64,000 bases of DNA. Source: Candidatus Harrisonbacteria bacterium (GTDB lineage Bacteria > Patescibacteriota > Minisyncoccia > UBA6257 > 02-FULL-45-10c). Shown here one piece after another: positions 686 through 58,378 of the stretch; position 1 is the first letter of the stretch; the number at the start of each line of letters is the position of its first letter. Location of the stretch: the NCBI GenBank assembly GCA_016214655.1, contig JACROC010000007.1, positions 130,647-194,646 of the forward strand, read 5' to 3'. The notes beneath the pieces were generated by a model. The model did no database searches. It worked only from the letters and a program-made list of their open reading frames with translations, and was not told the DNA's origin. The position numbers and the translations under genes were made by a program.

Positions 686-859
686 TTTTGTACGAGATTT
701 AGCCGGATTGTTGGCTAGATGCATACTCTATTATTATATAGGGTTTTAAGGAGGGGGTACAAATCTAAGGGTGAATAACTGCGGGCTATATAGATAATGT
801 GAAACTATGAATTTATGCGAATGCTGCGAATCTATTTTGTAAGGTGGATAAGCTGTGGA

Positions 860-1645
860 TTAAAACTGGATAAATTTAGCCATTTTCTCTATCTTCTCCA
901 GGCTTAGATCTTGCGGCCTGGATTTCGGGTCAACATTTAGAGGTTTTAGGATATTTTCTGTTTCGATGGCTGATAGATTTAACCCAGTTTTAAGGTTATT
1001 TAAGAGGGTTTTACGGGGTTGTTTGAAGATGATATGAAGCAATTTGTAATAAGTTTTAGGGTTTAGGGTATAGGGTTTAGGGTTGAGTTTTATTACAGCA
1101 GAGTCTATTTTGGGCGGCGGGCGGAAGTCTTTTGGTTTAAGGGTAAAAAGGATTTTTGGTTCTGCCCAGAATTGAACAGTTGCCGCTAATAGGTTCATCC
1201 GCGGCGGTTTTGCAACTATTCTTTCCGCTACCTCTTTTTGAATCATTAAAACAGTTAATTCGGGTTTATTTTCCAGTTCGCTTAGGGTCCGTAAAAGTTT
1301 TCCGGTGATGTAGTAAGGAATGTTGCCCACGACTTTGTAGGGTATAGGGTTTAGCGTATAGGGTTTAGTGATTTTAGGAATTTCTTTTAAAGCATCCCCG
1401 ATTATGATTTTTAAATTTTTGCTATCCCCTAACCCCTCGACCCTAGACCCTAATTGGGGGTCTTTCTCAATCCCGATAACTTTGCAATTTAATTTTCCGC
1501 ATTCTTTCAGGAGCGGAAAGGTTAAGGCGCCTTCTCCGGGGCCGATTTCAATAACTATCTCATTGGGTCCCAAACCTAGGGCCGCCACTATTTTTTTAAT
1601 GGCGGCTTTGTTTACAAGGAAATGCTGACCAAGCCGCTTATTCAT
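860..1645 (-). CDS. rsmA: 16S rRNA (adenine1518/1519-N6)-dimethyltransferase RsmA/KsgA
   Basis: QHFLVN motif near the N-terminus, SAM-binding IEIGPGEGALT, NIPYYIT (NLPY-type) motif. Start placed at the ATG that overlaps the helicase stop (TAATG); the alternative upstream start is at 1675. Contains PYTLNP peptide insertions encoded by GGGTTTA-type repeats. Confidence 0.85.
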   Translation of the reverse strand: MNKRLGQHFLVNKAAIKKIVAALGLGPNEIVIEIGPGEGALTFPLLKECGKLNCKVIGIEKDPQLGSRVEGLGDSKNLKIIIGDALKEIPKITKPYTLNPIPYKVVGNIPYYITGKLLRTLSELENKPELTVLMIQKEVAERIVAKPPRMNLLAATVQFWAEPKILFTLKPKDFRPPPKIDSAVIKLNPKPYTLNPKTYYKLLHIIFKQPRKTLLNNLKTGLNLSAIETENILKPLNVDPKSRPQDLSLEKIEKMAKFIQF

Positions 1646-3453
1646 TATTCTATATAAATTGTTTCGTCGTCCCAATCTTTTATCTCTTCACCATAACTTG
1701 ATATTTGCTTGAACTCAATCAGTTCCGGCGGCAGTTCGCCCAAGAATCTGGATGGGAGATCGTAAAAACTGATATGAAGATTATATTTGGCGCGGGTCAT
1801 GGCAACGTACATTAGCCGGCGTTCTTCTTCCAGTTCATCGGCTTTCAACATCGACCTCTCGTGCGGCAGTAACCCGTCGTTCGCGCCAACGATAAATATG
1901 TGGTCAAATTCCAGCCCCTTGGCAAGGTGAATGGTCATCAATTTAATTGCATTTTCTTCTAACTTTGGCCGGCCATCTAAGCTGGACATTAAAGCAACTT
2001 GTTCCAGGAATTCGTGAGCGTCCTGGAAGGTGGCCGCAAAATTAATTAATTCTTTAATGTTTTCCTGGCGTTCCTCTGGGTTTTTAAAATTTTTCTCTAA
2101 ATATTCTAAATAATCCGTATTTTCTAAGAAATAATTAATCAATTGGACTAGCGACAATTCATTGCTGAGGCGCGGCAGGTTTTCCAATAGGACCGCGTTT
2201 TTTGACCGGTTGAAATTTTTGGCCAGGCGTTCAATGCTGGCGGCATCATTCGGGTTAAAGGCGTAGCGGAGGCCGGCAATAATATCTTTAATTTCCTTGC
2301 GTGCGTAAAATTTCAATCCCCCGAAAATTTCATAAGGTATCCGGCTTTGGATTAACGTTTGTTCAATGGCGCGCGATTGCGCGTTGGTCCGGTAAAGAAT
2401 AGCGATATTTTTAAGCGATTCCCCGTTTTTCAATATTTCCGAAATTTTTTCCGCAATGCCCCAGGCCTCTTCTTCGTTATTCTGATAAGCTGTCAGATAA
2501 ATCGGCGAACCCTCCTGATTGTTGGTCCAAAGGGCTTTGGGTTTTTGGAATTTGTTATTCTTGATCAATTCAGAGGCGGCGCGGATGATGTTTTTGGTGG
2601 AGCGGTAATTTTCTTCCAGTTTAATAATGGCGGCGTTTTGCCAATCTTTTTCAAAGTTCAGGAAATTCCGGAAATCCGATCCCCTGAATGCGTAAATACT
2701 CTGCGCATCGTCGCCGATAACAAAAAGATTTTTATGTTTTTGCGCCAGCAGTTTTATTAAGAGATACTGGCTGGTATTTACGTCCTGGTATTCATCCACC
2801 AGAATTTGCTGCCAAGAGTTCTGATATTTTTCTAGCATTGCGGGATGAGTCTGGAAAATTTTAACCACTTTCTCAATCAGATCATCAAAATCAAAAGCAT
2901 TGCTTTTTTTAAGCAACTCCCCATATTTTTGGAAAACCGCCAGTATAATCTGTTCATAGCGGTCTCCGGATCCCAGTTCTCCGGCATCCAGAAGCTCATT
3001 TTTTATTTTGGAAATTTTGGCCATTACAGCAAGGGGATTAAATCGATCCTTAGATAGATTCATTTCCTCTAGAATTTTTTTAACCAGACTCAGGGAATCA
3101 TCCTCGTCAAAGATGGTAAAATTTCTCGTTCGTCCGACCAGTTTAGCCTCTTGTTTTAAAATTTGGACACCCAGGGAATGAAAAGTACCGATGAATGGCA
3201 TTCCATTATTCATTATTCCTGATTCATTATTCATAATTCTTGATTTCATTTCTTTCGCCGCCTTATTAGTAAATGTAACCGCAACGATATTTTCTGGTTT
3301 GATTCCGGATTTGAGTAAATATATCAGGCGGCTGGTCAGGGTCCGGGTTTTGCCGGAGCCGGCTCCGGCGGCAATTAAAAGAGGACCATTTCCGTGCGTG
3401 ACGGCTTTTCGCTGTACCTCGTTTAAATCTTTAAATAGATTTTTATCGGACAT
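1645..3453 (-). CDS. UvrD/PcrA/Rep-family ATP-dependent DNA helicase
   Basis: Walker A AAGAGSGKTRTLTSR, DEYQD motif (VDEYQDVN), helicase C-terminal motifs (VAMTRAK). Confidence 0.85.
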   Translation of the reverse strand: MSDKNLFKDLNEVQRKAVTHGNGPLLIAAGAGSGKTRTLTSRLIYLLKSGIKPENIVAVTFTNKAAKEMKSRIMNNESGIMNNGMPFIGTFHSLGVQILKQEAKLVGRTRNFTIFDEDDSLSLVKKILEEMNLSKDRFNPLAVMAKISKIKNELLDAGELGSGDRYEQIILAVFQKYGELLKKSNAFDFDDLIEKVVKIFQTHPAMLEKYQNSWQQILVDEYQDVNTSQYLLIKLLAQKHKNLFVIGDDAQSIYAFRGSDFRNFLNFEKDWQNAAIIKLEENYRSTKNIIRAASELIKNNKFQKPKALWTNNQEGSPIYLTAYQNNEEEAWGIAEKISEILKNGESLKNIAILYRTNAQSRAIEQTLIQSRIPYEIFGGLKFYARKEIKDIIAGLRYAFNPNDAASIERLAKNFNRSKNAVLLENLPRLSNELSLVQLINYFLENTDYLEYLEKNFKNPEERQENIKELINFAATFQDAHEFLEQVALMSSLDGRPKLEENAIKLMTIHLAKGLEFDHIFIVGANDGLLPHERSMLKADELEEERRLMYVAMTRAKYNLHISFYDLPSRFLGELPPELIEFKQISSYGEEIKDWDDETIYIE

Positions 3454-3658
3454 AGTTAAGTTCTAAGCACTAAACTCTAAACAATATTAAAATTCAAAGT
3501 ATCAAAATCTAAAACGTTTTATATTTAATATTTTAGATATTTGGATTTATTTAGGATTTAGATATTAGAGTTTTGGATTTTATAGCATAAAAGGAATTTT
3601 TATGCTATGTTAATGTATTATTACTATTCTAAGCAACCAACTTAATAGGATAAAGATC

Positions 3659-8146: not shown

Positions 8147-8295
8147 GAGCTCACTACCTATCTGTCTACCGGCACCGGAGTCCGTCCCGTCCAGCGCGGG
8201 ACGGCTCCTACGCCTCACCCCGAAAATTTTCGTTTCGCGAAAAACCAATCTTTTCGGGGTTCCGTAGTTGCCGCACGACAGATAGGTAGTTCACC
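8147..8295. repeat. Structured palindromic intergenic element, copy A (multi-hairpin; ends are inverted complements ACTACCTATCTGTC / GACAGATAGGTAGT)
   Basis: About 75% identical to copy B at 33813-33955. Differences between the copies are compensatory inside the hairpins (gtcccg..cgggac versus gccgac..gtcggc). Confidence 0.7.
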
Positions 8296-10700: not shown

Positions 10701-10804
10701 TCAACGCGATCCAAAACTACAAATGCATACGAATCTACAAATATGAAAAAATTTTCGTAGATTCGGATCAATTCGCAGTTTCGTATCGGTTAAAGCGTAA
10801 GCAT

Positions 10805-12343
10805 ATGAATTTATCTAAAGTCTACTCTGCCGCGATTGAAGGCATAGAAGCAAAGCTAATAGAAATTGAGACCGACGTAAACGTCGGTCTTCATAGTTTT
10901 ACTATCGTCGGGTTGGCGGATAAATCACTTTCCGAGGCAAAAGAGCGGGTGAGCTCGGCGCTGAAAAACAGCGGCGTTAAGCCGCCGACCAAAGAAAATC
11001 GTAAAATATTGGTGAATTTGGCCCCGGCGGATTTAAAAAAGACCGGTTCGCAATATGATTTAGGAATTGCCATTGGTTATCTTTTGGCTACTAAGCAGTT
11101 AAAAGAATTTAACACCAAAGATAAAATTTTTGCCGGTGAATTGGCGCTGGATGGCGCGCTTCGTCCGGTAAGCGGAGTTTTGAATATTTCGCGAATGGCT
11201 AAAACGGAAAAGTTTAAGGAAGTTTTCGTGCCGAAAGAAAATGCCGCAGAAGCGGCAATTATTGACGGCGTAAAAGTTATTCCAGTTGGCAGTTTATCGG
11301 ATTTAATCAATCACCTGGAAGACAGAAGGATTATTGATTTACAGCCCAAAACTGAAATTGAGCCGTCGCTTTCTTCCGAGCATCAATTGGTGGATATTAC
11401 CGACATTAAAGGACAGGAGAATGCAAAACGCGCCCTAATGATTGCTGCGGCTGGAGGGCATAATTTATTGATGCAGGGAACTCCGGGTGCCGGAAAAACT
11501 ATGCTGGCGCAGGCTTTAGTTTCCATTCTGCCGCCGCCGAGCTTGGGAGAAATTATTGAGGTGACGCAGATTTATAGCTCTGCCGGATTACTTAAAGGAA
11601 ATTCTTTTATAAATTGGCGGCCATTTCGTTCGCCGCACCAAACTGCTTCGCCAGTTGCAGTTATCGGCGGAGGACAAAATCCAAAGCCGGGAGAAATAAG
11701 TTTAGCGCACCGCGGAGTTTTATTTCTGGATGAGTTGCCGGAATTCCGGCGAGATTTATTGGAAGCCCTCCGTCAGCCGATGGAAAGCGGCAAAGCGATA
11801 ATTTCTAGAATCAGGAATAATTTAGTTTTTCCGGCGAAATTTATTCTGGTGGCCGCGATGAATCCGTGTCCGTGCGGTTATTATGGCGATGAGGAAAAAG
11901 AATGCCGCTGTGGCGCCTACGAGGTAATTCGGTATCAGAAGAAAGTTTCCGGCCCGCTCCTGGATCGGATTGATCTTCAAATTAATGTTCCGCGGGTGAA
12001 GATTGAGCATCTGCAGAATAAAAATCGCGATCAAAAATCAGCAGGAGAAATGCGGGAAAAAATTCTGGCCGCCCGAGAACTTCAAGCCGCCAGATTCGCT
12101 CAATGGAAAGGGATTCTTACTAATTCGGAGATGACCTCTAAGATGTGCGATGAATCAATAGAGTTAGATAAAGCATCCAATCAATTTTTAAAGGATATTT
12201 TTGAAAAATCGCTTATTTCCGCCCGGGGATATTATCGGATTTTGAAAACTGCCCGGACTATCGCTGATTTAGAGAATTCAAATAATGTCAGAGAGGATCA
12301 CTTAGCGGAAGCGTTTCAGTACCGACTTCGGGAAAGCAATTAA
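10805..12343 (+). CDS. YifB/ComM-family Mg-chelatase-like AAA+ ATPase
   Basis: Lon-like N-terminus, Walker A GTPGAGKTMLAQ, ChlI-type motifs, C-terminal Cys cluster CPCGYYGDEEKECRCG. Start placed at MNLSKVYSAAIEGIEA. Confidence 0.8.
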   Translation: MNLSKVYSAAIEGIEAKLIEIETDVNVGLHSFTIVGLADKSLSEAKERVSSALKNSGVKPPTKENRKILVNLAPADLKKTGSQYDLGIAIGYLLATKQLKEFNTKDKIFAGELALDGALRPVSGVLNISRMAKTEKFKEVFVPKENAAEAAIIDGVKVIPVGSLSDLINHLEDRRIIDLQPKTEIEPSLSSEHQLVDITDIKGQENAKRALMIAAAGGHNLLMQGTPGAGKTMLAQALVSILPPPSLGEIIEVTQIYSSAGLLKGNSFINWRPFRSPHQTASPVAVIGGGQNPKPGEISLAHRGVLFLDELPEFRRDLLEALRQPMESGKAIISRIRNNLVFPAKFILVAAMNPCPCGYYGDEEKECRCGAYEVIRYQKKVSGPLLDRIDLQINVPRVKIEHLQNKNRDQKSAGEMREKILAARELQAARFAQWKGILTNSEMTSKMCDESIELDKASNQFLKDIFEKSLISARGYYRILKTARTIADLENSNNVREDHLAEAFQYRLRESN

Positions 12344-14101: not shown

Positions 14102-16210
14102 TTATTTACTTAATTGTTTGATTGAAAGACCAACTTTGCCGTTTTCCATTTTTACGATTTTTGCCCTGACAAAATCACCTAATTTTAAGACATCTTCTAC
14201 CTTTTTGACGTAGCCGTCTTTTAATTCGGATACATGAATCATGCCGTCTTTGCCGGGACTGAATTCAACTATGGCTCCGAATTCTAAAATTTTTATCACC
14301 GTCCCCTCTACTATGTCGCCAACTTTATATTCTTTGGCGATTCCTAAAACCTGATCGTAAGCTTTTTGGGCCGTATCTTTATCTGTGGCGGTAATGAAAA
14401 CTCTGCCGTCATCTTCTATGTCTATTGAAGTTACGCCAGTGGCTTCAATTATTGCATTGATTACTTTGCCTCCCGGACCGATGACCTCGCCGATAAGTTC
14501 CGGATTAATCTGCAGACTAAGAATTCTCGGAGCAAAGGCGGAAAGTTCAGCTCTTGGTTCTGGTAAAGCTTTAACTATAGTTTCTAAAATGTGCAACCGA
14601 GCTTCTTTGGCTTGAGCCAGGGTTTTGCTGAGCATTTCAGGGGTGACGCCAAGAATTTTTACATCCATTTGGATAGCGGTGACGCCATTTTTAGTGCCGG
14701 CCGCTTTAAAATCCATATCGCCGTGGTGGTCTTCCGGTCCTTGGATATCGGTCAGAACTTTAAAATCCTCCCCCTTTTTATCTAATATCAATCCCATGGC
14801 AATTCCGGCCGCCGGTCCTTTAATCGGCACTCCGGCGTCCATTAAGGATAAGCTGCCGGCGCAAACCGATGCCATTGAAGATGAGCCGTTAGACGATAAA
14901 ATTTCGGAAACTAATCTGATGGTGTACGGAAATTTATCTTGCGTGGGTATCAGGGCGCGCAGAGCTTTTTCTGCCAATGCGCCATGGCCGATTTCTCTTC
15001 TGCCAGGCCCCCTCATTGCGCCGACTTCTCCGGTAGAAAATGGCGGGAAATTATAGTGGAGCATAAACCGGCGCTTGCCGGAAAATTCAATAGTATCTAC
15101 TAACTGTTGGTCGCCTGGGGCGCCAAGAGTGGTAAGCGCCAGGGATTGGGTATTGCCGCGGACAAAGAGCGCTGAGCCGTGGACTCGTTTTAACAACCCC
15201 ACTTCGGCATAAAGATCCCGGACTTGATTTAGTTTGCGGCCATCCGGGCGTTTTTCTTCCGCAAGGATTTTTTCATGGAGTAATTCGTCAATTTCTTTAT
15301 CAAAAAGAGTTTCAGCACCGGCAATGTCTTTTTCCGAGTAATCTTTTTCAGCTAGAGCAGTCTTCATTTTACCCTTTAAGGATTCCAGATTTTCTTGCCT
15401 TTCTACCTTGGTTTGGGTATAGAGCGCAGACTCCAGTTTATTTTTCAAAAATTCTTTTACAAATTTTACGATTTCCTGATTGGGTTCAGCTAAATCAACT
15501 TTTTCTTTTTCTTTGCCAGTTTCTTTAATCATATTTTTTTGGAAATTTACCAGGCTAGCAATTTCTTTTTGCGCCATTTCAAAAGCGGCTACTACATCTT
15601 TTTCATTGGCTTCATCTCCGCCAAGTTCAACCATGTTGATCCGGCTGTTAGTGCCGGCAATTAAAGTTTCAAATTCTATTTCTTTATCTTTGAACTCGCT
15701 GGTTTTTGGATTAAGAAGCAGAGCTGGATCATTTTTCAATTTTACTATTTTTACTCCTGCCACCGGACCGTTCCAGGGGATAGAAGAAATCGCCAGCGCA
15801 GCGGAACTGGACAGCAGGCTGATAAAATCTAAATCATTTTCGCCGTCAAAAGATAGGACAGTTATTACCACTTGAACTTCCCTTCTGGTTGCCTGATTAA
15901 ATAATGGCCGTATAGTCCGGTCAACAATGCGGCCGGTCAGAATCGCCTCATCTGAAGACTTTCCTTCACGGCGCATAAAGCGGCTCCCGAGGATTTTCCC
16001 GGCCGCATAAAATTTTTCTTCATAGTTGACCATCAGCGGAAAATAATCTCCATCTTTATCTTCTTTGCTCATGACTGCGGTTGCAAGGACGGTGGTGTCT
16101 CCATAAGTTCCGATCACGGCGGCATTGGCCTGTTCGGCAATGCGGGAAACTTCCAAAGTCAGCGGTTTGCCAGCGAATTCCATTTTAAATTGTTTTCTTT
16201 GTAAATCCAT
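14102..16210 (-). CDS. pnp: Polyribonucleotide nucleotidyltransferase (PNPase)
   Basis: Two RNase PH-like domains, KH and C-terminal S1 domain. Classical rpsO-pnp arrangement. Confidence 0.9.
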   Translation of the reverse strand: MDLQRKQFKMEFAGKPLTLEVSRIAEQANAAVIGTYGDTTVLATAVMSKEDKDGDYFPLMVNYEEKFYAAGKILGSRFMRREGKSSDEAILTGRIVDRTIRPLFNQATRREVQVVITVLSFDGENDLDFISLLSSSAALAISSIPWNGPVAGVKIVKLKNDPALLLNPKTSEFKDKEIEFETLIAGTNSRINMVELGGDEANEKDVVAAFEMAQKEIASLVNFQKNMIKETGKEKEKVDLAEPNQEIVKFVKEFLKNKLESALYTQTKVERQENLESLKGKMKTALAEKDYSEKDIAGAETLFDKEIDELLHEKILAEEKRPDGRKLNQVRDLYAEVGLLKRVHGSALFVRGNTQSLALTTLGAPGDQQLVDTIEFSGKRRFMLHYNFPPFSTGEVGAMRGPGRREIGHGALAEKALRALIPTQDKFPYTIRLVSEILSSNGSSSMASVCAGSLSLMDAGVPIKGPAAGIAMGLILDKKGEDFKVLTDIQGPEDHHGDMDFKAAGTKNGVTAIQMDVKILGVTPEMLSKTLAQAKEARLHILETIVKALPEPRAELSAFAPRILSLQINPELIGEVIGPGGKVINAIIEATGVTSIDIEDDGRVFITATDKDTAQKAYDQVLGIAKEYKVGDIVEGTVIKILEFGAIVEFSPGKDGMIHVSELKDGYVKKVEDVLKLGDFVRAKIVKMENGKVGLSIKQLSK

Positions 16211-16318
16211 AAACTATGATACTAATATACTAATTCTACTAATGATACGAATAATACTAATTCTTTTTTATATTCGTATGATTGGTATCATTCGCATGCA
16301 TTCGTATATTGGTATCGC
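16205..16318 (-). repeat. AT-rich roughly 105-nt intergenic repeat, copy 1 (immediately upstream of pnp)
   Basis: Its reverse complement matches the copies at 46665-46760 and 56889-56992 (gcgataccaatatac.aatgcatgcgaatgatac ... attcgtatcattagta.aatt.gtatattagtatcatag). Contains internal direct sub-repeats ataccaata and attcgtat. Confidence 0.8.
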
Positions 16319-16319
16319 A

Positions 16320-16820
16320 TTACTTTTTTAATAATACTCTTGGCAATTTTTCTAAATCTACGAATTCGTCGGCCGCTTCCTTTATTTTGGCAGAAGTACT
16401 TCGGCCAAAAGCGGCGACTTCTACTGTCCGTCCGGCGCCCCATTTTAGATATTCTACCAGCGGTACAAAATCACCATCGCCGGTCACTAAGATGACTACG
16501 TCCAGGAGATTGGACATCCGAATGGCGTCTACTGCCATACCCACGTCCCAGTCGGCTTTTTTCATGCCGCCGGCGAAAATTTGTAAATCTTTACTTCTTA
16601 ACTCCAGCCCGCTTTTTATCAAAGCATCAAAAAATGCCGCTTCCCCTTCGGCGGTTTCACTTTTAACTACATAAGCGATGGCCGTAATTAATTTTCGGCC
16701 GCTAACCAATTCTTTTAAGAGTTCTTTATAGTTGACTCTGGCGTGGTATAAATTTTTTGCCGAGTGATAGAGATTTTGTATATCAATAAAAATACCAACT
16801 CGCTGATCCCTTCTTTTCAA
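16320..16820 (-). CDS. NYN/LabA-like (PIN-fold) domain protein
   Basis: VGIFIDIQNLYH N-terminus and LVTGDGDFVPLV motif typical of NYN/DUF88 proteins. Inserted between rpsO and pnp. Confidence 0.7.
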   Translation of the reverse strand: MKRRDQRVGIFIDIQNLYHSAKNLYHARVNYKELLKELVSGRKLITAIAYVVKSETAEGEAAFFDALIKSGLELRSKDLQIFAGGMKKADWDVGMAVDAIRMSNLLDVVILVTGDGDFVPLVEYLKWGAGRTVEVAAFGRSTSAKIKEAADEFVDLEKLPRVLLKK

Positions 16821-16837: not shown

Positions 16838-16925
16838 CAAACGATGCGAACATATACGGATGCTGCTAATAATTTATTTTATTCGCGGCATTCGCATACA
16901 TTCGTAGGTTTGCATTATGCTTTAT
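16838..16925 (-). repeat. Degenerate partial copy of the AT-rich repeat (upstream of the NYN gene)
   Basis: Reverse complement contains acgaatgtatgcgaatgccgcgaata, matching the 5' core tac.aatgcatgcgaatgataccaata of the repeat family. Confidence 0.5.
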
Positions 16926-17274: not shown

Positions 17275-18183
17275 ATGACAGAAATCGAAAAATTATTAAA
17301 AGAATATCTTGATTATCTGGAAATAGAAAAAAATCGTTCGCCGAAGACGCGGGAGAATTATGAGCGTTATCTAAGGGTTTTTATTAACTATTCAAAAGCT
17401 AAAAATGTAGAGGATATTACTACTGAACGGGTTAAAGAGTTTAGGGTGTATCTTGCCAGGCAAGAGGATTTAAAGAAAATTACCCAGACGTATTACGCGA
17501 TTGCTCTCCGGAATTTTTTAAAGTATTTAGTAAAAAATGATTATGATGTTTTGTCGCCGGATAAGATTGAACTCCCGAAGATTCCTAAGCGGCAGATTGA
17601 CATTATTGAGTATGCTGATTTGGAGAGATTTTTAAGCGCGCCGCTGCAAAATACGCTCCGAGGTTTGCGCGACCGCGCTATTTTGGAAACGTTTTTTTCC
17701 ACCGGACTCCGTATTTCCGAGCTTTGCAATCTAGACCGGTATATAAATTTGGACCGAGGGGAGGTATCGGTGCGCGGGAAAGGAGAAAAACTCCGAGTAG
17801 TGTTTTTATCTGACCGGGCGCGGGCGGCTCTTAAAAATTGGCTGGAAAAACGCACTGACACTTTAGAACATTTGTTTGTCAGTTTGTCCAAAAGCTCAAA
17901 GCTAAAAACTCAAAGCTCGCCCAAGGTAATCGGGAAAATTACTCCGCGCGCAGTGCAGCGGCTGGTGGAATTTTATCGCCGCAAAGCCGGCATTGCCAAG
18001 AAGATTACTCCCCACCAGATCCGGCATCAGTTCGCTACTGATTTATTGGTAAATGGCGCCGATCTCCGTTCGGTCCAGGAGCTTCTGGGGCATAGCAATA
18101 TTTCCACCACGCAGATTTATACTCACCTAACCAACAAAGAGCTTCGGGAGGTGCATAAATCGTTCCATGCCCGGAGACGATAG
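17275..18183 (+). CDS. Tyrosine site-specific recombinase, XerC/XerD family
   Basis: N-terminal SAM-like core-binding domain. C-terminal catalytic motifs R...HQFATDLL...LLGHSNISTTQIYTHL with the terminal Tyr. Confidence 0.8.
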   Translation: MTEIEKLLKEYLDYLEIEKNRSPKTRENYERYLRVFINYSKAKNVEDITTERVKEFRVYLARQEDLKKITQTYYAIALRNFLKYLVKNDYDVLSPDKIELPKIPKRQIDIIEYADLERFLSAPLQNTLRGLRDRAILETFFSTGLRISELCNLDRYINLDRGEVSVRGKGEKLRVVFLSDRARAALKNWLEKRTDTLEHLFVSLSKSSKLKTQSSPKVIGKITPRAVQRLVEFYRRKAGIAKKITPHQIRHQFATDLLVNGADLRSVQELLGHSNISTTQIYTHLTNKELREVHKSFHARRR

Positions 18184-22704: not shown

Positions 22705-24015
22705 TTATTTCCCTCGTTGCATTAATTCGGTGACCTGTTTTTCTCCTTGTGATAATGCCTCCAGTGGTTTTAATTTGCCGGATACCACTGCCCCGATCAT
22801 TCCGGAAAAGATTTGGTCTATTGGTTCTTTATCTATGCGCGGCCAGGATTTGGCGGACAGAGCTTGTTTTACAAAAACTCCCAGTTCTGGATGATTTGCG
22901 TATTTTTGAATTAGAGATCGGAGCGCCGGCGGATTATCAGAGGCAATAAGATAATCTTCAGCCGCTTTTTCATAAGTAGTCAAAAATAGTACCAGATTCC
23001 AGGCCCAATCTGGATTTTGGCTGTTGTTAGTTACGGCCAGTCCCCAATAATCCGGATAGTTCACCGCTTTTTCGGTAGTAGAAGGCTGCGGCATAGCGGC
23101 TACCCGGAAATTTAAAAATGGATTTTTGGCCAGGATAGTTTTTCTTTGGGAAGCATAATTGAAAATCATCGCTAGGTTGCCCTTGGCAAAGCTGTTCAAT
23201 GAATATTCCTGATCATCGTTCCAGGTATAAGCCAGATCCTTGGAGTTGCTGAATTTAGTATAGAAATTCAAGCCGTCTAAACCGGCGTTGCGTCCCTCAA
23301 CATTGCCAGTGAAAGTTGCCTCGGTAAATTCTTCATTGGTCATTTTAGTTCCGGCTTGTAAGAGAAGAAGCATCAGCAGGTCCGAAGCTTTATCCATGGA
23401 ATTATTTGAACCGCCAATGGCTGCGGCCGGTTTGACCAGGTTTCCAAGGGAGTCCAGGCGCCTTAATTTATCAACGATATTCTGAAAATCCAGCCAATCC
23501 TGCGGTTCCAGCGCTATGCCATTTTTATCAAAAATGTCTCTGTTATAAAATAGCGCCAAGGTATCTATATATAATGGAAGCGCGTATATTTTCCCCAATG
23601 AGGAAAAATCCTCTTTTATAACTCCCGGAAATAGGTTATCTAGATCGATGACGGAAATTTGATCTTCTTTGGCTGGAATAATTTTGTCAGAATGTTTTGG
23701 CAGCCAGGAGCTGTGAAATGAGACAATATCCGGACCTTTTTTGGTGGCGAGGGCGTTAATTAGGTCGATTTCCAGGGTTTCGGGATCTACTTTTTTGTAA
23801 TCAACTGTGATATTGGGCTGAAATTGCTTATAAAGTTTGAAATTATTTTCAAACCAGCTTGGGTCATCAACCCCCCAAATAGTTAAAGTAATTCTGGGCG
23901 GCGCTTCTGGAATCACCTTAAGTCCCGGGATAATGCCGGTGAAAACTCCGACAAAAAATAAAACTACAACGAGAACGGCGGCTATAACTACAAGTTGCGG
24001 GCGGGAAAGTTCCAT
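22705..24015 (-). CDS. Extracellular solute-binding protein (ABC-type SBP family 1, MalE-like), membrane-anchored
   Basis: N-terminal TM anchor and sugar-type SBP fold features. No permease or ATPase genes adjacent. Confidence 0.6.
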   Translation of the reverse strand: MELSRPQLVVIAAVLVVVLFFVGVFTGIIPGLKVIPEAPPRITLTIWGVDDPSWFENNFKLYKQFQPNITVDYKKVDPETLEIDLINALATKKGPDIVSFHSSWLPKHSDKIIPAKEDQISVIDLDNLFPGVIKEDFSSLGKIYALPLYIDTLALFYNRDIFDKNGIALEPQDWLDFQNIVDKLRRLDSLGNLVKPAAAIGGSNNSMDKASDLLMLLLLQAGTKMTNEEFTEATFTGNVEGRNAGLDGLNFYTKFSNSKDLAYTWNDDQEYSLNSFAKGNLAMIFNYASQRKTILAKNPFLNFRVAAMPQPSTTEKAVNYPDYWGLAVTNNSQNPDWAWNLVLFLTTYEKAAEDYLIASDNPPALRSLIQKYANHPELGVFVKQALSAKSWPRIDKEPIDQIFSGMIGAVVSGKLKPLEALSQGEKQVTELMQRGK

Positions 24016-27504: not shown

Positions 27505-27628
27505 ACCTAATAAATTTTAGCAGTTTTAGGGTCTATATTCAATAGCAGTTGCAAATTTTTTTATCGTAGATTATCATTTTATGATGTTGCTGGTTATTAA
27601 TCGCTAGTGGCTAGTCGCTGATAATTAT

Positions 27629-33812: not shown

Positions 33813-33955
33813 TTCGCTACCTATTTGCCTACCGGTACCGGCGTTCGCCGACTCCTGCGGTCGGCGTCGCCTACGCCTCGCCGCGATTTTTTGCTTCGCA
33901 AAACCAAGCAAATCGCGGCTCCGTAGTTACCGCACGACAGACAGGTAGCTCACTT
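33813..33955. repeat. Structured palindromic intergenic element, copy B
   Basis: Homologous to copy A (8147-8295) along its full length with compensatory substitutions in the hairpins. Ends are inverted complements GCTACCTATTTGCCTACCGG / CCGCACGACAGACAGGTAGC. Confidence 0.7.
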
Positions 33956-38794: not shown

Positions 38795-39015
38795 AACAAT
38801 GTTTAACAGCGCCATAGGCGCTGTTTATTATTTTCTAAGCGTGAAACAATTTTGTGAAACATTGGTAAGGATTTTGTGCTTAAAGTGACGATGGTACCGT
38901 TACATGAAACAATTTCATTAGATCAATTTTAACGAAAATAATGTTTCACAATTATTTTGTGAAACATTGATATTAGATTTGTGCTTAAATTTAGAAAATT
39001 GTTTGCGGTGAAACA
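38795..39015. repeat. Cluster of GTGAAACA(A/T)T octamer repeats and a roughly 45-nt imperfect direct repeat flanking the homing-endonuclease gene
   Basis: GTGAAACA or its reverse complement occurs at about 38797, 38833, 38846, 38914, 38942(rc), 38958, 39008 and again at 39444(rc). The unit ..ttttgtgaaacattg..a..atttgtgcttaaa is repeated at about 38838-38888 and about 38951-38996. Confidence 0.6.
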
Positions 39016-39443
39016 CTTTTAGCTTCGAAATGACCACGTTTGTATAGGCTATAGAGAACTTTATAATCTGGATGAATATCCGGATCTTGGCCGATTTTCT
39101 CAAGCCATTCTAATAATTGTTTTCCTTTATAACCAATAAGTTTCTTATAGAAAAATGGAATTATTATATCTCTAAGCTCTCCAAAATCTCTTACGATTAA
39201 TCTTGCTGTTTTGCCTCTCTTAAATCCGTCCAAGCTATATGGTTTAAGGATATAAATTTTATTTTTAATATTTAAGCGTCGCTTAACTTGTTCAATTAAT
39301 TCTTTATCCCGTTCATGCATACTAAGAACAAATGCAGGTATTTTTATTTTATTGCCATGCTTATTCTTCTGGGGTATATTACAAAAGGAAAAACAGCCTT
39401 CGCCATCTATTAATCCTCTAATATAGTTGTCAGTTATATTCAT
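38991..39443 (-). CDS. LAGLIDADG-family homing endonuclease (free-standing)
   Basis: N-terminal YIRGLIDGEGCF is the canonical LAGLIDADG motif. 150 aa, single-motif type. Confidence 0.75.
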   Translation of the reverse strand: MNITDNYIRGLIDGEGCFSFCNIPQKNKHGNKIKIPAFVLSMHERDKELIEQVKRRLNIKNKIYILKPYSLDGFKRGKTARLIVRDFGELRDIIIPFFYKKLIGYKGKQLLEWLEKIGQDPDIHPDYKVLYSLYKRGHFEAKSVSPQTIF

Positions 39444-39515: not shown

Positions 39516-39983
39516 ATGACTAAAAAATCTGAAACAGGAAAACTGGGTGAAGATATTGCCTGCCAATATCTTTTAAACAAAGGATTTAGTATTATTGAGC
39601 GAAATTATAGGAAGCTATGGGGCGAGTTAGATATTATTGCGAAAGATCCGGAGGGAACTTTAGTTTTTGTAGAGGTAAAGGCAATTCGGCAATTCGGCAA
39701 TTATAAAAATGCGGCAATTTTGCCGGAAGAAAATTTAACTGCCGCAAAATTAAAGAAATTAAAAAGAACCGCATCTTTATATGCTGGATTTAATGAAAAT
39801 TTAATTGATGACGAAAGGGGATGGAGGATTGATCTCGTTGCAATCATGATTCCGGATGTTTTACATGAAACATTGATCCCGTTAGAGACAGAGGCACGCT
39901 GTGAGCCCTCGCGGTCTCTAACGGGATTGACAGAATTATTAAAATATTGTGATATAAAACATTTTGAAAATGTGGAAATGTAA
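39516..39983 (+). CDS. YraN-family (UPF0102) endonuclease-like protein
   Basis: GEDIACQYLLNKGFSIIERNYR...GELDIIAKDPEGTLVFVEVKA matches the UPF0102/YraN PD-(D/E)xK pattern. Has a C-terminal extension. Confidence 0.65.
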   Translation: MTKKSETGKLGEDIACQYLLNKGFSIIERNYRKLWGELDIIAKDPEGTLVFVEVKAIRQFGNYKNAAILPEENLTAAKLKKLKRTASLYAGFNENLIDDERGWRIDLVAIMIPDVLHETLIPLETEARCEPSRSLTGLTELLKYCDIKHFENVEM

Positions 39984-46565: not shown

Positions 46566-46664
46566 TCAGCGGAGCTTTAGGATCTTGACAAATCCTACTT
46601 TGTTGTCTATTATTATTGTAATGATTGATTGTCCGCCGAGAGCGGACATTTTATTAAAAACAAT

Positions 46665-46760
46665 CGCGATACCAATATACTAATGCATGCGAATGATACC
46701 AATAATACAAATTCGCATTTATTCGTATCATTAGTACAATTCGTATATTAGTATCATAGT
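46665..46760 (+). repeat. AT-rich intergenic repeat, copy 2 (immediately upstream of nusA; has a central deletion relative to copies 1 and 3)
   Basis: cgcgataccaatatactaatgcatgcgaatgataccaata...attcgtatcattagtacaattcgtatattagtatcatag ends 3 nt before the nusA ATG. Confidence 0.8.
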
Positions 46761-46763
46761 TTT

Positions 46764-47996: not shown

Positions 47997-48040
47997 TTAA
48001 TAGACTTTTAGCTTCTAGTTTTGAGCTTTTAGAAAATTTC

Positions 48041-48071
48041 TAACAGCTGAGAGCTAACAGCTAACAGCTAG
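48041..48071 (+). repeat. Short tandem repeat (AGCTAAC)n upstream of the pyrophosphatase gene
   Basis: taacagctgagagctaacagctaacagctag is seen directly in the sequence. Confidence 0.5.
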
Positions 48072-54452: not shown

Positions 54453-56888
54453 ATGAAAATAACTAAAGTTCTTAAATTCGGAGGTTCGTCGGTGGGCACG
54501 CCAAAGATGATCAAGGGGGTTGGTGAAATTGTGAAAGCTGCATCTAAAAGAGATAGAGTGGCGGTCGTGGTGTCAGCTTTTCAGGGAGTTACCGATCAGC
54601 TTTTAAAATGCGTGCGCTTGACCGCGAAAAATGATAAACGGTTATTCGATGAGCTAAAAAATTTGAAAGAGCGCCACTTAAAAGCAGTTAAATTATTAGT
54701 TCGTAAACCTAAATATTTGCGAAATAATGTTCTAGCGCACGTTGAATCATTGTTTATTGAGCTTGTTGCGGTATTAGAAAAAATTGCCAAAGAAAAAGGA
54801 GTTTCCAATAAAAATTTGGACTGGGTAGCGAGTTTCGGTGAGCGGCTTTCGGCGTATATTATTGCGGCGTCGACGAAGAATGCATATTTCGTAGATGCTC
54901 GCGAATTGGTTAGGACTGATAATAATTTTGTGAATGCGGCTGTGGATTTTAATGCAACCAACCGTAAAATTATACATTTTTTCACTGAGAAACAGAGAGG
55001 CAAAGAAACGAAAAATAAAATCCCGATTATTACCGGATTTTTAGGTTCCACCAGTAAAAGAGAAATCACTACACTTGGACGAGGGGGTTCGGACTATTCC
55101 GCTGCGATTTTTGGTGCTGCGCTTGGTGTAAAAGTAGTGGAAATCTGGACTGATGTAGATGGGGTGATGAGCGCGGACCCTCGCCTGGTAAAACGGGCAG
55201 TGGTGCTCTCGCAGATAAGTTACGAAGAAGCGATCGAGATGGCTTATTTCGGCGCCAAAGTGATTCATCCGGCGACCATGCTCCCAGCGATTAAAAAAGG
55301 AATACCGATTTTGATTAAAAATACATTTAATCCCATTACGCCCGGAACTTGGATCCAGAAAAAAATGGTGCTCGAGCCATTTGTAAAAGGCATCACCGCT
55401 ATTGACGACATTGTTTTAGTTAATATAGGGGGCGTAAGTTTGGGCGGAATCCCAGGGAGCGCCGCCAGGGTATTTGAGGCAACTGCGCGGGCAAAAGCAA
55501 ACGTAATTCTAATTTCTCAGGCTTCTTCAGAATATACTATTTGTTTTGCGCTTAAATCGGCAGAGCTTTCGGCCGCGCTTAAAGTATTGCGGGAGGAGTT
55601 TAGGAAAGAAATAAAATCCGGCCAGGTAAGTATTTCAACCGTACCTTCGCAAGCTATTATTGCGCTGGTTGGCGATGGCATGCGCGGCGTGCCGGGCATT
55701 GCCGGGAAATTATTCAAAGCGATAGGTGATAATGGGGTGAATATTTCCGCAATTGCGCAGGGCGGATCGGAACGGAATATTTCTTTTGTTGTGGATTTGG
55801 CAGATAAGGCGAAAGCATTAAATGTGGCACATGATGAATTTTTCCTAGGCGCAACCAAAAATATTTTTTTGATCGGCACCGGTAATATTGGCGGTACCCT
55901 GCTTGATCAAATTCACAATCTATCGAAGTCCGACTTCAATAGATTGAGGGTATGCGGGATTATTAACGCTTTTAATATGCTTACCAGTGAATCGGGTATT
56001 AATTTAGGCGGTTGGCAAAAGAAATTGGAAAAGGGTGAAAAGCCTGATTTTGAGAAATGGCTCAATTGGGCTAAAGAATTGCCACTTGGCAATAAAGTCT
56101 TTGTGGATTGTACTGCCAGTGATGGGGTTGCCAGAAAATACATTGAAATTGCCGAGGTGGGATTTAACATTGTGACTCCGAATAAGAAATTTAATGTCCG
56201 GCCGATGAAGGAATATAAAAAATTGCGGGAAGTAATGGCAAAAAATAAAAATCAGTTTTTGTATGAAACTAATGTCGGCGCCGCGCTTCCGATTATCGCG
56301 CCGCTTCAGGATTTATTAAAAACAGGTGATAGGATTACAAAAATCGAAGGAGTGTTTTCCGGAACATTAAGCTATATTTTTAATAATTTTGACGGAACTA
56401 AACCATTTAGTAAGGTGGTGGAGGAAGCAAAAAAACTTGGCTACACCGAGCCGGATCCGCGGGAAGATTTAAGTGGGCAGGACGTTGGAAGGAAGTTATT
56501 GGTTCTAGCGCGGGAGATTGGTTACGAGTTGGAATTTAAGGATATTGAAATTGAAAATCTGGTACCGGCAGCGCTTCAACGCGTTAAAGTGCCGGGAGAA
56601 TTTTTGAAGCGATTAAAGGAATTTGACGGATATTTCAAGAAACTTTTAGAAAAAGCATATTCGCAAAATAAGGTTCTGAGATATGTGGCGCGACTAGAAA
56701 GAGGTAGGGCGGTTGCGTCGCTTCAGGCGGTGCCGTTAGATAATCCACTTGCAAGCAATCGCGGCGCAGATAATATATTTGCCTTTTGGACTAAGAGATA
56801 TAAGGAAAGGCCTTTAGTCGTACAAGGACCGGGAGCGGGAAGAGAAGTAACTGCGGCTGGAGTGTTGGCGGATATATTACGAATATAA
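54453..56888 (+). CDS. thrA: Bifunctional aspartokinase / homoserine dehydrogenase
   Basis: N-terminal aspartokinase (KFGGSSVG), ACT domains, C-terminal homoserine dehydrogenase (GTGNIGG Rossmann motif). 811 aa. Confidence 0.85.
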   Translation: MKITKVLKFGGSSVGTPKMIKGVGEIVKAASKRDRVAVVVSAFQGVTDQLLKCVRLTAKNDKRLFDELKNLKERHLKAVKLLVRKPKYLRNNVLAHVESLFIELVAVLEKIAKEKGVSNKNLDWVASFGERLSAYIIAASTKNAYFVDARELVRTDNNFVNAAVDFNATNRKIIHFFTEKQRGKETKNKIPIITGFLGSTSKREITTLGRGGSDYSAAIFGAALGVKVVEIWTDVDGVMSADPRLVKRAVVLSQISYEEAIEMAYFGAKVIHPATMLPAIKKGIPILIKNTFNPITPGTWIQKKMVLEPFVKGITAIDDIVLVNIGGVSLGGIPGSAARVFEATARAKANVILISQASSEYTICFALKSAELSAALKVLREEFRKEIKSGQVSISTVPSQAIIALVGDGMRGVPGIAGKLFKAIGDNGVNISAIAQGGSERNISFVVDLADKAKALNVAHDEFFLGATKNIFLIGTGNIGGTLLDQIHNLSKSDFNRLRVCGIINAFNMLTSESGINLGGWQKKLEKGEKPDFEKWLNWAKELPLGNKVFVDCTASDGVARKYIEIAEVGFNIVTPNKKFNVRPMKEYKKLREVMAKNKNQFLYETNVGAALPIIAPLQDLLKTGDRITKIEGVFSGTLSYIFNNFDGTKPFSKVVEEAKKLGYTEPDPREDLSGQDVGRKLLVLAREIGYELEFKDIEIENLVPAALQRVKVPGEFLKRLKEFDGYFKKLLEKAYSQNKVLRYVARLERGRAVASLQAVPLDNPLASNRGADNIFAFWTKRYKERPLVVQGPGAGREVTAAGVLADILRI

Positions 56889-56992
56889 CGCGATACCAAT
56901 ATACTAATGCATGCGAATGATACTAATTATGCGAATATTTTAAAATTAGTATTATTCGTATCATTAGTACAATTCGTATATTAGTATCATAG
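56889..56992 (+). repeat. AT-rich intergenic repeat, copy 3 (full-length, downstream of thrA)
   Basis: Near-identical to the reverse complement of copy 1 and to copy 2 over about 100 nt. Confidence 0.8.
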
Positions 56993-57053
56993 TTAGCGTC
57001 AGCGATAAAAAAGAAAAGCGCCCCGATGGTTAATCGAGGCGCCGGTGATGAAG

Positions 57054-57203
57054 TTATCTCTTTTTGAGTTCTTCCAAGATTCCCTTTAGGAGACTGTTAG
57101 TTTCATTTAAGGGCTCTAGAAAAAATACGCACAAGATCAATACTGCTAAGATTGGGCTAAACATTATTCCCAATCCCATGAGGGCTAGACAGGCTGTATA
57201 CAT
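57054..57203 (-). CDS. Small hydrophobic protein (49 aa)
   Basis: MYTACLALMGLGIMFSPILAVLILCVFFLEPLNETNSLLKGILEELKKR. AAAGGAGGA RBS 6 nt upstream. Below the ORF-table length cutoff. Confidence 0.45.
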   Translation of the reverse strand: MYTACLALMGLGIMFSPILAVLILCVFFLEPLNETNSLLKGILEELKKR

Positions 57204-57263: not shown

Positions 57264-58331
57264 ATGTCAAGTATAAATAAAAAATTGAGAGTTGGGATTT
57301 TGGGTGCCACCGGAATGGTTGGCCAGCGGTTTATCTCGCTTTTGGAAAATCATCCGTGGTTTGAAGTGGTGTGTTTAGCAGCTTCTCCGCAATCAGCTGG
57401 AAAATCGTATCAAGAAGCAGCTGGGGGGCGATGGAGTATGAAAAACCCTATTCCCGAAAAAAATCGTGATATGAAATTACAAGCCGTAGAAGAAGATTTT
57501 AATGAAATTATAAAAAAGGTTGATTTAGTTTTTTCCGCGATTGATATGGATAAAGAAAAAATTAAAGAAATTGAAGCGCGATACGCTGCGGCGGGTGCGG
57601 CAGTTATTTCCAATAATTCTGCGCATCGGTGGACCGAGGACGTGCCAATGGTGATACCCGAAATTAATGCTCATCATTTATCTTTGATCGACATTCAAAG
57701 GAAAAATCGCAGCTGGAAAAGTGGATTGCTAGTGGTAAAGCCGAATTGTTCTTTGCAGTCATATCTTCCAGTGGTGTATGCGCTTAAAGAATTTAAGCCG
57801 AAATATGTTTTGGTCACAACTTTACAGGCAATATCCGGCGCTGGTAAAACTTTTGAATCATGGCCGGAAATGGTAGATAACTGCACCCCTTTTATAAAAG
57901 GCGAGGAGGAAAAGACAGAAAAGGAACCGATGAAAATTTGGGGCGAAGATTGCCCGGTTATTTCCGCAACTTGCATCCGGGTTGCGGCCTCAGATGGCCA
58001 TATGGCTAGCGTTTCAGTGGAGTTTGAGAATAAACCAACGCTGGAGCAGATACGTAATGCGATTGATAATTTCTCAAATCCGCTTAACGAGTTAAATCTT
58101 CCTTCCGCGCCCGAAAAATTCATTAAATATTTTACCGAAGATGATCGTCCGCAGACTAAGTTAGACCGCGATTATGCTGGCGGTATGGGAATTACTTGCG
58201 GGAGATTTCGGGAAGATGGCAAATATGGGTGGAAATTTGTTGCACTTTCCCATAATACGATCCGTGGCGCAGCTGGTGGAGCGGTGCTGATTGCGGAATT
58301 GCTTCATAAAAAAGGATATTTAAATATTTAG
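57264..58331 (+). CDS. asd: Aspartate-semialdehyde dehydrogenase
   Basis: N-terminal NAD(P)-binding LGATGMVGQRF and the active-site Cys region. Confidence 0.85.
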   Translation: MSSINKKLRVGILGATGMVGQRFISLLENHPWFEVVCLAASPQSAGKSYQEAAGGRWSMKNPIPEKNRDMKLQAVEEDFNEIIKKVDLVFSAIDMDKEKIKEIEARYAAAGAAVISNNSAHRWTEDVPMVIPEINAHHLSLIDIQRKNRSWKSGLLVVKPNCSLQSYLPVVYALKEFKPKYVLVTTLQAISGAGKTFESWPEMVDNCTPFIKGEEEKTEKEPMKIWGEDCPVISATCIRVAASDGHMASVSVEFENKPTLEQIRNAIDNFSNPLNELNLPSAPEKFIKYFTEDDRPQTKLDRDYAGGMGITCGRFREDGKYGWKFVALSHNTIRGAAGGAVLIAELLHKKGYLNI

Positions 58332-58378
58332 TGATTAGCGACTAGCCATTAGCGACTGGAATTTGTATCATAAGAGAT

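Follow-up and report, generated by a model that had tools for sequence, protein, structure and literature searches.

A palindromic repeat of Patescibacteria, probably insertional, whose full-length form carries a nuclease gene

A repeat of about 100 nt lies directly upstream of both pnp and nusA in a 64,000-nt stretch of a Candidatus Harrisonbacteria genome (contig JACROC010000007.1, positions 130,647 to 194,646; the whole stretch is called the window here), and this raises the question of whether it is a regulatory module shared by genes of RNA metabolism and transcription or an element that has been inserted at unrelated places. The original prediction claimed three near-identical copies; all three (A, B and C) were found, with a core running from GATACC to AGTATC and arms that match a cross-genome consensus at 42-45 of 47 positions. 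They belong to a family of elements of 80-120 bp that is present in many Patescibacteria lineages. On balance we favor the view that the element is an insertional, probably selfish, palindromic repeat with a nuclease-bearing full-length form, and a dispersed repeat or mobile promoter cassette is a better fit to the data than a specific regulon. The copies in the window are listed below, with arm matches to the consensus in parentheses.

16211..16322 (core 16218-16316), minus strand: copy A with its conserved flanks; right arm 16212-16262 (42/47), left arm 16272-16321 (45/47)
46664..46763 (core 46668-46755), plus strand: copy B; left arm 46664-46712 (44/47), right arm 46710-46761 (45/47)
56887..57004 (core 56892-56988), plus strand: copy C with its tail ATAGTT and AGCGTCAGCG (56995-57004)
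10706..10804, plus strand: copy E, degenerate; left arm 10706-10742 (36/47), right arm 10754-10787 (31/47)
about 16838-16918, no strand assigned: copy D, a diverged and more GC-rich palindrome with TGCGAA/TTCGCA-type units in the rpsO-NYN spacer
806..834, no strand assigned: weak half copy with TGCGAAT units, like one arm of D, just 3' of a ksgA-type gene

The left arm consists of about five 9-nt units, RATACNAAT, and the right arm is a mirror array of about five units of the complement, ATTNGTAT(C). Because one unit is arrayed in the left arm and its complement in the right, the element is an imperfect palindrome; its arms mirror each other over about 45 nt, as do the terminal inverted repeats of a short non-coding element of the miniature inverted-repeat transposable element (MITE) kind. 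The direct sub-repeats and the GCATGC palindrome that had been listed for each copy are all present: the sub-repeats are instances of the single 9-nt unit, and GCATGC comes from one left-arm unit that is enlarged to GCATGCGAAT. The center of the element varies in length, and its ends read AATRY followed by GATACC on one side and GGTATC followed by RYATT on the other. A two-unit pattern is matched 22 times in the window where 5.5 +/- 2.5 matches are expected (about a 4-fold excess); 13 of the 22 lie inside copies A-C, and every exact match is inside a copy. Copy E, absent from the earlier list, and the half copy at about 806-834 were recovered with nhmmer arm models, the half copy with weak support (10.8 bits and E 0.02 with the right-arm model); it forms an inverted pair with 16881-16918.

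Outside the window, the exact left-arm 19-mer (GCATGCGAATGATACNAAT) occurs at 105 loci in species-representative genomes, where by our own estimate fewer than 20 matches would be expected by chance. Six of the 105 (four in Bacteroidetes, one in Legionella and one in a Treponemataceae) were rejected as chance 19-mer matches in coding DNA. Full-scoring arms are present in 66 genomes besides the window, and the conservation extends beyond the 19-mer. Carriers with lineage names are nearly all Patescibacteria, the reliably named hosts being Liptonbacteria, Yanofskybacteria, Kaiserbacteria, Jorgensenbacteria, Wolfebacteria, Harrisonbacteria, Azambacteria, Moranbacteria, Falkowbacteria, Buchananbacteria, Jacksonbacteria, Roizmanbacteria and Gracilibacteria; a single-cell genome is among the hosts. 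In judging range we gave no weight to the labels 'Nanoarchaeota' and 'Gammaproteobacteria' and to many 'Saccharibacteria' labels of third-party bins, which are unreliable. An independent right-arm 19-mer is present on at least 120 metagenome contigs, and among the metagenome matches listed about half of the elements selected by it are symmetric R'-R palindromes. A lineage-specific variant with an extra GC-rich outer inverted repeat (GGCCGCCTGAACGGCGGC...) was also seen, in several copies per genome, at loci L003, L036, L056, L070, L099 and L102 (metagenome-assembled genomes JAHFIF01 and CAIQCM01).

Nine of the 68 pairs of arms in the genome loci have 346-408 nt between them and enclose an open reading frame (ORF) matching TIGR04256 / PF13366, the GxxExxY family of PD-(D/E)XK proteins; the full-length element thus carries a gene for a predicted nuclease of about 134 aa, with a Cas4-like fold, exactly in its loop. 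The ORF takes its start codon from the ATG within the left-arm sequence AATGCATGC, its first ten or so codons (MHANDTNNTN) are encoded by that arm, and it ends (..KFV, stop) within the first right-arm unit. All 11 GxxExxY genes in the genome loci that are at least 50% identical lie between arms or, in two cases at locus ends, directly after arms; more distant GxxExxY paralogues are not flanked by arms. Six more arm-associated GxxExxY genes were found in metagenome contigs, among the matches listed. The cargo nuclease has more than 1000 database homologues, and most of the best 120 open with some form of the peptide that the arm encodes. In 11-12 of 14 evaluable cases, a host gene that starts 5-36 nt past the right arm runs in the same direction as the cargo. 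The Pfam entry for PDDEXK_3 gives the function as unknown, and no solved structure is related in sequence to the cargo nuclease. We read the window copies as ORF-less derivatives of the full-length element.

Comparison with related genomes indicates that copies are gained and lost. Copy A occupies the entire spacer from the NYN stop codon to the pnp ATG; in four relatives, whose polynucleotide phosphorylases (PNPases) are 75-77% identical, the order xer - rpsO - NYN - pnp is kept, the NYN-pnp gap measures 5-42 nt and copy A is absent. Copy A is specific to the lineage of the window. Copy B is placed between a conserved promoter and hairpin and the nusA ATG at 46764. Five genomes, including the window, share the TTGACA-17-TATTAT promoter and T-run hairpin upstream of nusA, and the stretch from the hairpin to the nusA ATG is occupied by the canonical element in the window, by an ACGAAT/ATTCGT array in L106, by a TACGAAA/TTTCGTA array in L109, and by an unrelated short sequence in L107 and L108. 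Copy C begins 3 nt past the thrA stop; what it faces is no gene start but the 3' end of a small ORF on the minus strand. Its distance of about 270 nt from asd was given correctly; ORF 57054-57203 (minus strand), with its own promoter-like site and a terminator-like hairpin, stands between C and asd, and copy C therefore lies outside the asd promoter. In L108, a relative, the thrA and asd genes overlap and no element separates them; copy C together with the small ORF is therefore an indel.

A series of alleles is seen at the position of copy E, which fills the spacer from a DksA/TraR-type gene to a ComM/Mg-chelatase-type gene, with ggttaAAGCGTAAGCat between its right arm and the ATG at 10805. 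This dksA-type/comM-type junction measures 0-2 nt in L110-L112 and holds a plain terminator in a fourth relative, and copy E is absent from all four. In a Harrisonbacteria-like metagenome contig (L156), the same junction carries a near-consensus left arm, a GxxExxY gene and a right arm. The orthologous site is thus empty in L110-L112, occupied without an ORF in the window and occupied by an ORF-bearing element in L156, and such a series is what a homing-type cycle of gain, decay and loss would be expected to produce. Canonical arms number none in about 120 kb of seven relatives, compared with five copies in the 64 kb of the window.

Copy D differs in history. The original prediction described it as a degenerate copy upstream of the NYN gene; the palindrome is present, but it is not a product of recent decay, for a related palindrome occupies the same rpsO-NYN position in four relatives (L110-L113), with compensatory changes at 6 of 21 predicted pairs across these 4 genomes.

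Three further observations concern the nusA region. The relative L109 has two elements with canonical 9-nt units in its nusA-pyrophosphatase spacer. In the window, the spacer between nusA and the H+-pyrophosphatase gene holds a different palindromic array at 48005-48070, with a 7-nt period (CTTTTAG-type units facing CTAACAG-type units), and a heptad run like it is also present at 17884-17918, inside the Xer-like ORF. The promoter about 115 nt upstream of nusA (46585-46648) consists of TTGACA-17-TATTAT (11/12 matches) followed by the T-run hairpin GTCCGCC..GGCGGAC ATTTTATT; common to all five syntenic genomes, it is a candidate nusA leader or attenuator.

The genes next to copies are of many kinds. 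Those in the window, identified by Pfam, are pnp, an NYN-domain gene, rpsO, the Xer-like recombinase gene, nusA, the H+-pyrophosphatase gene, thrA, asd, the DksA/TraR-type zinc-finger gene and the ComM/Mg-chelatase-type gene. In 67 genomes and over 100 metagenome contigs, the neighbors of the element are housekeeping genes of a wide variety, and those starting beside an element include ribosomal genes (rplK, rpmI, rpsL, rpsG, rplB, rplJ, rplC, rplF, rplT), secE (five times), pnp (three times), secA, secY, six aminoacyl-tRNA synthetase genes, ATP synthase subunit genes, pilin, pilB, pilC and pilT genes, and dnaJ, dnaK, recA, lexA, ssb, pgk, adk, infC and fusA. An operator or module specific to genes of RNA metabolism and transcription, as had been suggested, is thus not borne out: downstream genes are a housekeeping mix, the copy before pnp is absent from four relatives, and the stretch before nusA differs from relative to relative. 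For the window, this removes the idea of a pnp/nusA regulon.

Nor does the placement of copies at gene starts speak for a function. Forty-five of 55 evaluable copies abut a gene start, which is about the share of intergenic regions that contain one, and we rejected gene-start association as functional evidence since any intergenic element in a compact genome would be expected to show it. Of the 55, 32 have the right end toward a gene start and 16 the left end; between co-directional genes, the downstream start is faced by the right end 20 times and by the left end 10 times, an orientation bias of only about 2:1. Placement at random with respect to gene starts and strands had been named beforehand as the finding that would tell against a regulatory reading, and it is largely what is seen.

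Other copies and single arms lie in unselective contexts. The left arm lies in frame within continuous ORFs, where it encodes peptides rich in D, T and N (one case is in the single-cell genome); the ORFs, assigned by eye from sequence, are class I aminoacyl-tRNA-synthetase-like, Tgt-like and glycosyltransferase-like. A full copy is present in a 23S-5S spacer, at the tip of a longer stem. Two 23S rRNA insertions, at L004 5230-5555 and L087 181-550, include a single element arm in their 3' ends; in L011 and L051 Rfam calls group I introns in 23S rRNA genes, with arms adjoining the 23S fragments and introns, and from their sequence and these intron matches in sister loci we read the L004 and L087 insertions as group I introns too. 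The element is moreover tolerated at junctions that measure 0-2 nt in relatives. We conclude that these contexts are those of tolerated insertions.

In our reading the family behaves as insertional, probably selfish DNA: copies are gained and lost among close relatives, and they land exactly between stop and start codons, in 5' leaders and in rRNA spacers. We propose further that the GxxExxY nuclease would be the element's own enzyme, acting on the heptad arrays or on the palindrome, and its action may drive a gain/loss cycle like that of a homing endonuclease. Since the copies sit within transcription units, they would be transcribed as imperfect hairpins of about 45 bp. The outward right end, TATATTGGTATCAT, would offer -10-like hexamers 4-12 nt before the downstream ATG; an insertion may therefore start the downstream gene's expression afresh, or at least leave it possible, and this would explain the persistence of copies before pnp, nusA and the comM-type gene. 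Promoter or RNA-hairpin effects on the neighbors are plausible.

Copies A and B have the same orientation relative to pnp and nusA, as had been described, and AGTATC ends 7 nt upstream of the pnp ATG and 8 nt upstream of the nusA ATG; the conserved tail ATAGTT(T) of these copies reaches to within 1-2 nt of the ATG. The right end bears -10-like hexamers, and in the family consensus this end fits TGnTAnnnT. Among adjacent genes, the ATG lies 6-9 nt past GGTATC in 23 of 41 in the genome loci and in 35 of 72 in the metagenome matches listed. In a second class the ATG is 13-16 nt away, with an AGCGnAAGCG motif that also follows C and E. This motif (perhaps a GCGNAAGC mini-hairpin) is found between right end and ATG at 10793-10802, at 56995-57004 and at many metagenome loci (e.g. 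GGTATCAT..AGCGTAAGCGTATG), and it also occurs in the 23S rRNA insertions that we read as group I introns, past the arm at their 3' end.

A Shine-Dalgarno (SD)-like motif precedes only 18 of 50 window genes, and many have no SD but a TATAAT-like box 5-7 nt before the ATG, such as asd (57264) and the genes at 17275, 22705 (ORF 22705-24015, minus strand), 30715, 41496 and 52804, as would be expected for leaderless mRNAs. When 711 starts in related loci are taken together, TANNNT is commonest 6-9 nt ahead of the ATG. A clean leaderless-promoter reading of the element was rejected, as its TATCAT lies about 2 nt too near the ATG in the commonest arrangement, and is kept here in the conditional form given above. 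Of the mobile promoter cassette suggested in the original prediction, the insertional nature and the -10-like hexamers near the ATG stand, and the promoter activity is what we infer.

Several results weigh against an insertional, selfish repeat that carries promoter-like ends. The differences between A, B and C are all at N, spacer or R/Y positions, and arm identity, in samples picked through exact 19-mers, is 0.83 within genomes and 0.78 between them, which looks like constraint on the unit sequence and not like young neutral copies. The same gene classes recur downstream (secE five times, pnp three times, dnaJ three times, and pilB/pilC), and this could mean host selection for function. Target-site duplications (TSDs), sought in 110 elements with k = 2-6 and 64 offset combinations, show no consistent pattern, the counts being barely above shuffled values (8 against a 95th percentile of 6 for k=4, and 37 against 33 for k=2). 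A partner with the same ends exists, but its only ORF, the one in the loop, matches TIGR04256 / PF13366 and no transposase family, so that the transposase-encoding autonomous partner that a MITE should have is not seen. The element was not found in 2.9 million viral contigs nor in phage and plasmid collections, so no vector between lineages is evident. As to the promoter-like ends, the gap from TATCAT to ATG is 4-7 nt, about 2 nt shorter than the general TANNNT peak, scans for consensus promoters in the copies reach just 9/12 matches, and nusA has its own conserved canonical promoter upstream.

The pattern of variation introduces the first of two main rivals, both of which could be additional layers on an insertional repeat. 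Among 58 compact elements, conservation reaches at least 90% at the ATT/GTA core positions of each unit, and the central N and the inter-unit spacers vary freely, a pattern that points to recognition of the unit by a sequence-specific protein. The identity and constraint samples were picked through exact 19-mers, and exchange between units could yield the same pattern; an argument for purifying selection on each copy from within- and between-genome identity is weakened by this choice of samples, and because unit exchange would also confine variation to N and spacers.

If the arrays were host regulatory DNA, they would bind a conserved Patescibacteria regulator or nucleoid protein and, with their -10-like ends, would act as bidirectional promoter/operator cassettes for housekeeping operons, many of them leaderless or with short leaders. 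The confinement of variation to N and spacers, with cores conserved in every unit and genome, suits this, and so does the lack of covariation at variable positions, as expected if a protein reads each unit. Recurrence before secE, pnp, dnaJ, ribosomal-protein, tRNA-synthetase and pilus genes, the ATG 6-9 nt from the right end, the right end facing gene starts about twice as often as the left, and the symmetric R'-R half of the right-arm-selected elements listed, with two promoter-like ends, are all counted in its favor. However, relatives do without the element at pnp, comM and thrA/asd, copy C faces the terminator of a convergent gene, and arms lie in frame inside ORFs and inside introns. No good -35 box is present and the scans stop at 9/12, the placement statistics are those of any intergenic element, and no candidate binding protein was identified. 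We regard host regulatory DNA as a doubtful explanation of the element as a whole. We offer, equally tentatively, a broader version: the arrays may be recognized by a conserved Patescibacteria protein (the GxxExxY nuclease, a domesticated relative or a global regulator), and the element may be a self-propagating expression cassette that insulates two genes as an RNA or DNA hairpin and restarts the second of them, whose mRNA would be leaderless or have a very short leader. If so, it would be a major organizer of housekeeping-operon expression in these reduced genomes.

The second rival places the function in RNA, with the long imperfect hairpin in operon transcripts acting as a processing or stability signal (an RNase III-type site or a barrier to 3' exonucleases, compare T7 intergenic sites, enterobacterial repetitive intergenic consensus (ERIC) sequences and repetitive extragenic palindromic (REP) sequences) that would uncouple or stabilize cistrons. 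All copies are within transcribed spacers or leaders. Copies A-C fold, on either strand, into mismatched hairpins of about 45 bp with energies of -24 to -36 kcal/mol (z -3.6 to -5.7), copy D reaches -37 kcal/mol (z -6.4), and the range over all copies on both strands is -24 to -38 kcal/mol (z -3.6 to -6.4). With copies in transcribed spacers that fold in this way, the cis-acting leader RNA raised in the original prediction is conceivable. Also in line with an RNA function, D stays behind rpsO in five genomes and 6 of its 21 pairs are compensatory, the full copy in the 23S-5S spacer is at a stem tip, and the variant arrays of relatives change the unit in both arms together (TACGAAA/TTTCGTA and ACGAAT/ATTCGT) and therefore remain palindromic. 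From these joint changes in the variant arrays and the compensatory changes in D, we conclude that palindromy itself matters too.

The canonical copies do not behave as a conserved stem, however. They show no covariation: Watson-Crick pairs at five variable unit positions are at or below the shuffled expectation (e.g. 13 observed against 20.3), so that these positions pair no more than by chance and in some unit pairs less. The conservation of sequence goes far beyond the needs of a stem, and the single arms in ORFs, in introns and flanking the 400-nt cargo are unable to fold into the hairpin locally. There is no U-tract after the hairpin, and in a search of the window Rfam gave only tRNAs at the gathering score and just chance-level matches over the copies at permissive E-values. 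We think an RNA-level role unlikely to be what the element is for.

It is very improbable that the element serves natural transformation as a DNA-uptake signal, or that it is a guide-RNA array of tandem interspaced guide RNA (TIGR) or CRISPR type. Patescibacteria are held to be naturally competent, and in-frame arms in ORFs together with inverted pairs between genes do look like uptake sequences, but single units are not enriched outside arrays in the window (ATACNAAT, 7 observed against 9.8 expected; TACGAAT, 4 against 8.3), which argues against such a role. TIGR arrays have been reported from these bacteria, and TIGR/CRISPR-like arrays are defined by tandem units with variable spacers of 8-12 nt beside a Tas or Cas gene (PMC12045711). 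The element instead has one variable base per unit, its copies are single dispersed palindromes and form no tandem arrays, and no Nop-domain or Cas gene stands beside any copy among the window genes. An integron attC site, which closes promoterless cassettes arrayed beside an IntI integrase, was also considered and rejected; the copies are at unrelated loci, and the Xer-like gene (17275-18183) stays beside rpsO in relatives without copy A.

As an insertional repeat, the element resembles ERIC sequences, Rickettsia palindromic elements (RPEs), MITEs and homing-endonuclease cycles in kind, the tests made place it in none of these groups, and we found no earlier description of it in a search of full-text literature. 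The likeness to ERIC and RPE is by description, and no similarity to the ERIC sequence is apparent by eye. ERIC sequences, or intergenic repeat units (IRUs), are likewise imperfect palindromes of about 100-130 bp in transcribed intergenic regions, for which hairpin effects have been proposed and whose function is debated. Their copy number is very variable between related genomes and their sequence unusually conserved across genera. Unlike them, the present element occurs in several named Patescibacteria lineages and not in one family, has a 9-nt periodic unit, and has a form with a nuclease ORF in its loop as well as half copies inside ORFs. RPEs are palindromic repeats of another reduced-genome, host-dependent lineage; their insertions lie between genes, within RNA genes and, in frame, within protein genes, to which they add hydrophilic peptides. 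In contrast, only single arms (about 45 nt, with D-T-N-rich peptides) were seen in ORFs here, and this element is far wider phylogenetically and has an associated nuclease gene.

With MITEs such as the Correia elements of Neisseria, the element shares a short non-coding form, terminal inverted repeats, insertion polymorphism, outward promoter-like sequences and a longer coding relative with the same ends. It differs in that no TSD was found and the coding relative encodes a 134-aa PD-(D/E)XK nuclease and no recognized transposase, and its arms are heptad arrays, closer to sub-terminal protein-binding repeats than to simple inverted repeats. A further parallel is with ORF-bearing intervening sequences of 23S rRNA and with homing-endonuclease genes, free-standing or in introns: a structured or palindromic host element holds a small nuclease ORF in its loop, one orthologous site can be empty, filled without an ORF or filled with one, and remnants are found in group I introns. 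PD-(D/E)XK homing endonucleases exist (I-Ssp6803I). Here, however, the host element is a multi-copy repeat dispersed at unrelated loci, without splicing, and the nuclease is predicted from its sequence. Putative mobile promoters are similar in being repeats of about 100 nt that sit directly before unrelated genes and have -10-like boxes at the end nearer the gene, but many copies of the present element face no gene start, its promoter role is putative, and it is palindromic and conserved far past one genome.

Patescibacteria (the candidate phyla radiation, CPR) make up a large share of bacterial diversity, and to our knowledge almost nothing has been established about their non-coding DNA, promoters and mobile elements. 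The element, in which about 90% of the constrained positions are retained from one named lineage to another, sits in core-operon junctions and is tied to one nuclease family; it is thus an unusual handle on SD-less gene expression, on the role of the PD-(D/E)XK GxxExxY proteins and on how DNA spreads among these symbionts. In practice, the repeat breaks or confuses assemblies and leads gene callers to add spurious N-termini (MHANDTN...), and it is a possible lineage marker.

The window contains other repeats and related features. Heptad repeats of TAGCGAC/TAGCCAT type are present at 58329-58357 and 27601-27627, the former just upstream of TGTATCAT, 7 nt beyond which is the ATG of a shikimate kinase gene at 58379. 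Within the ksgA-type (RrnaAD) ORF (860-1675), TTTAGGG / TAGGGTA / CCCTAGA heptads occur at 1050-1084, 1338-1368 and 1434-1452; three DnaA-box-like 9-mers (GGTGGATAA, TGTGGATTA and CTGGATAAA) fall within 40 nt at 835-875, at the 3' end of the ksgA-type gene and beside the weak half copy. About nine TTTTAGA-like heptads (3517-3582) occupy the spacer that separates an ORF starting at 3659 from a divergent UvrD-type helicase gene (1645-3453, minus strand). A free-standing LAGLIDADG endonuclease gene (38991-39443, minus strand) is divergent from a UPF0102/NucS-like gene (39516-39983, plus strand), and the pair is also present in L108. Finally, a 57-nt repeat occurs at 8238-8294 and 33897-33953 (82% identical), and L108 and L109 have a sequence similar to it (..CCAAGCAAATCGCGGCTCCGTAGTTGCCG..) about 250 nt ahead of nusA.

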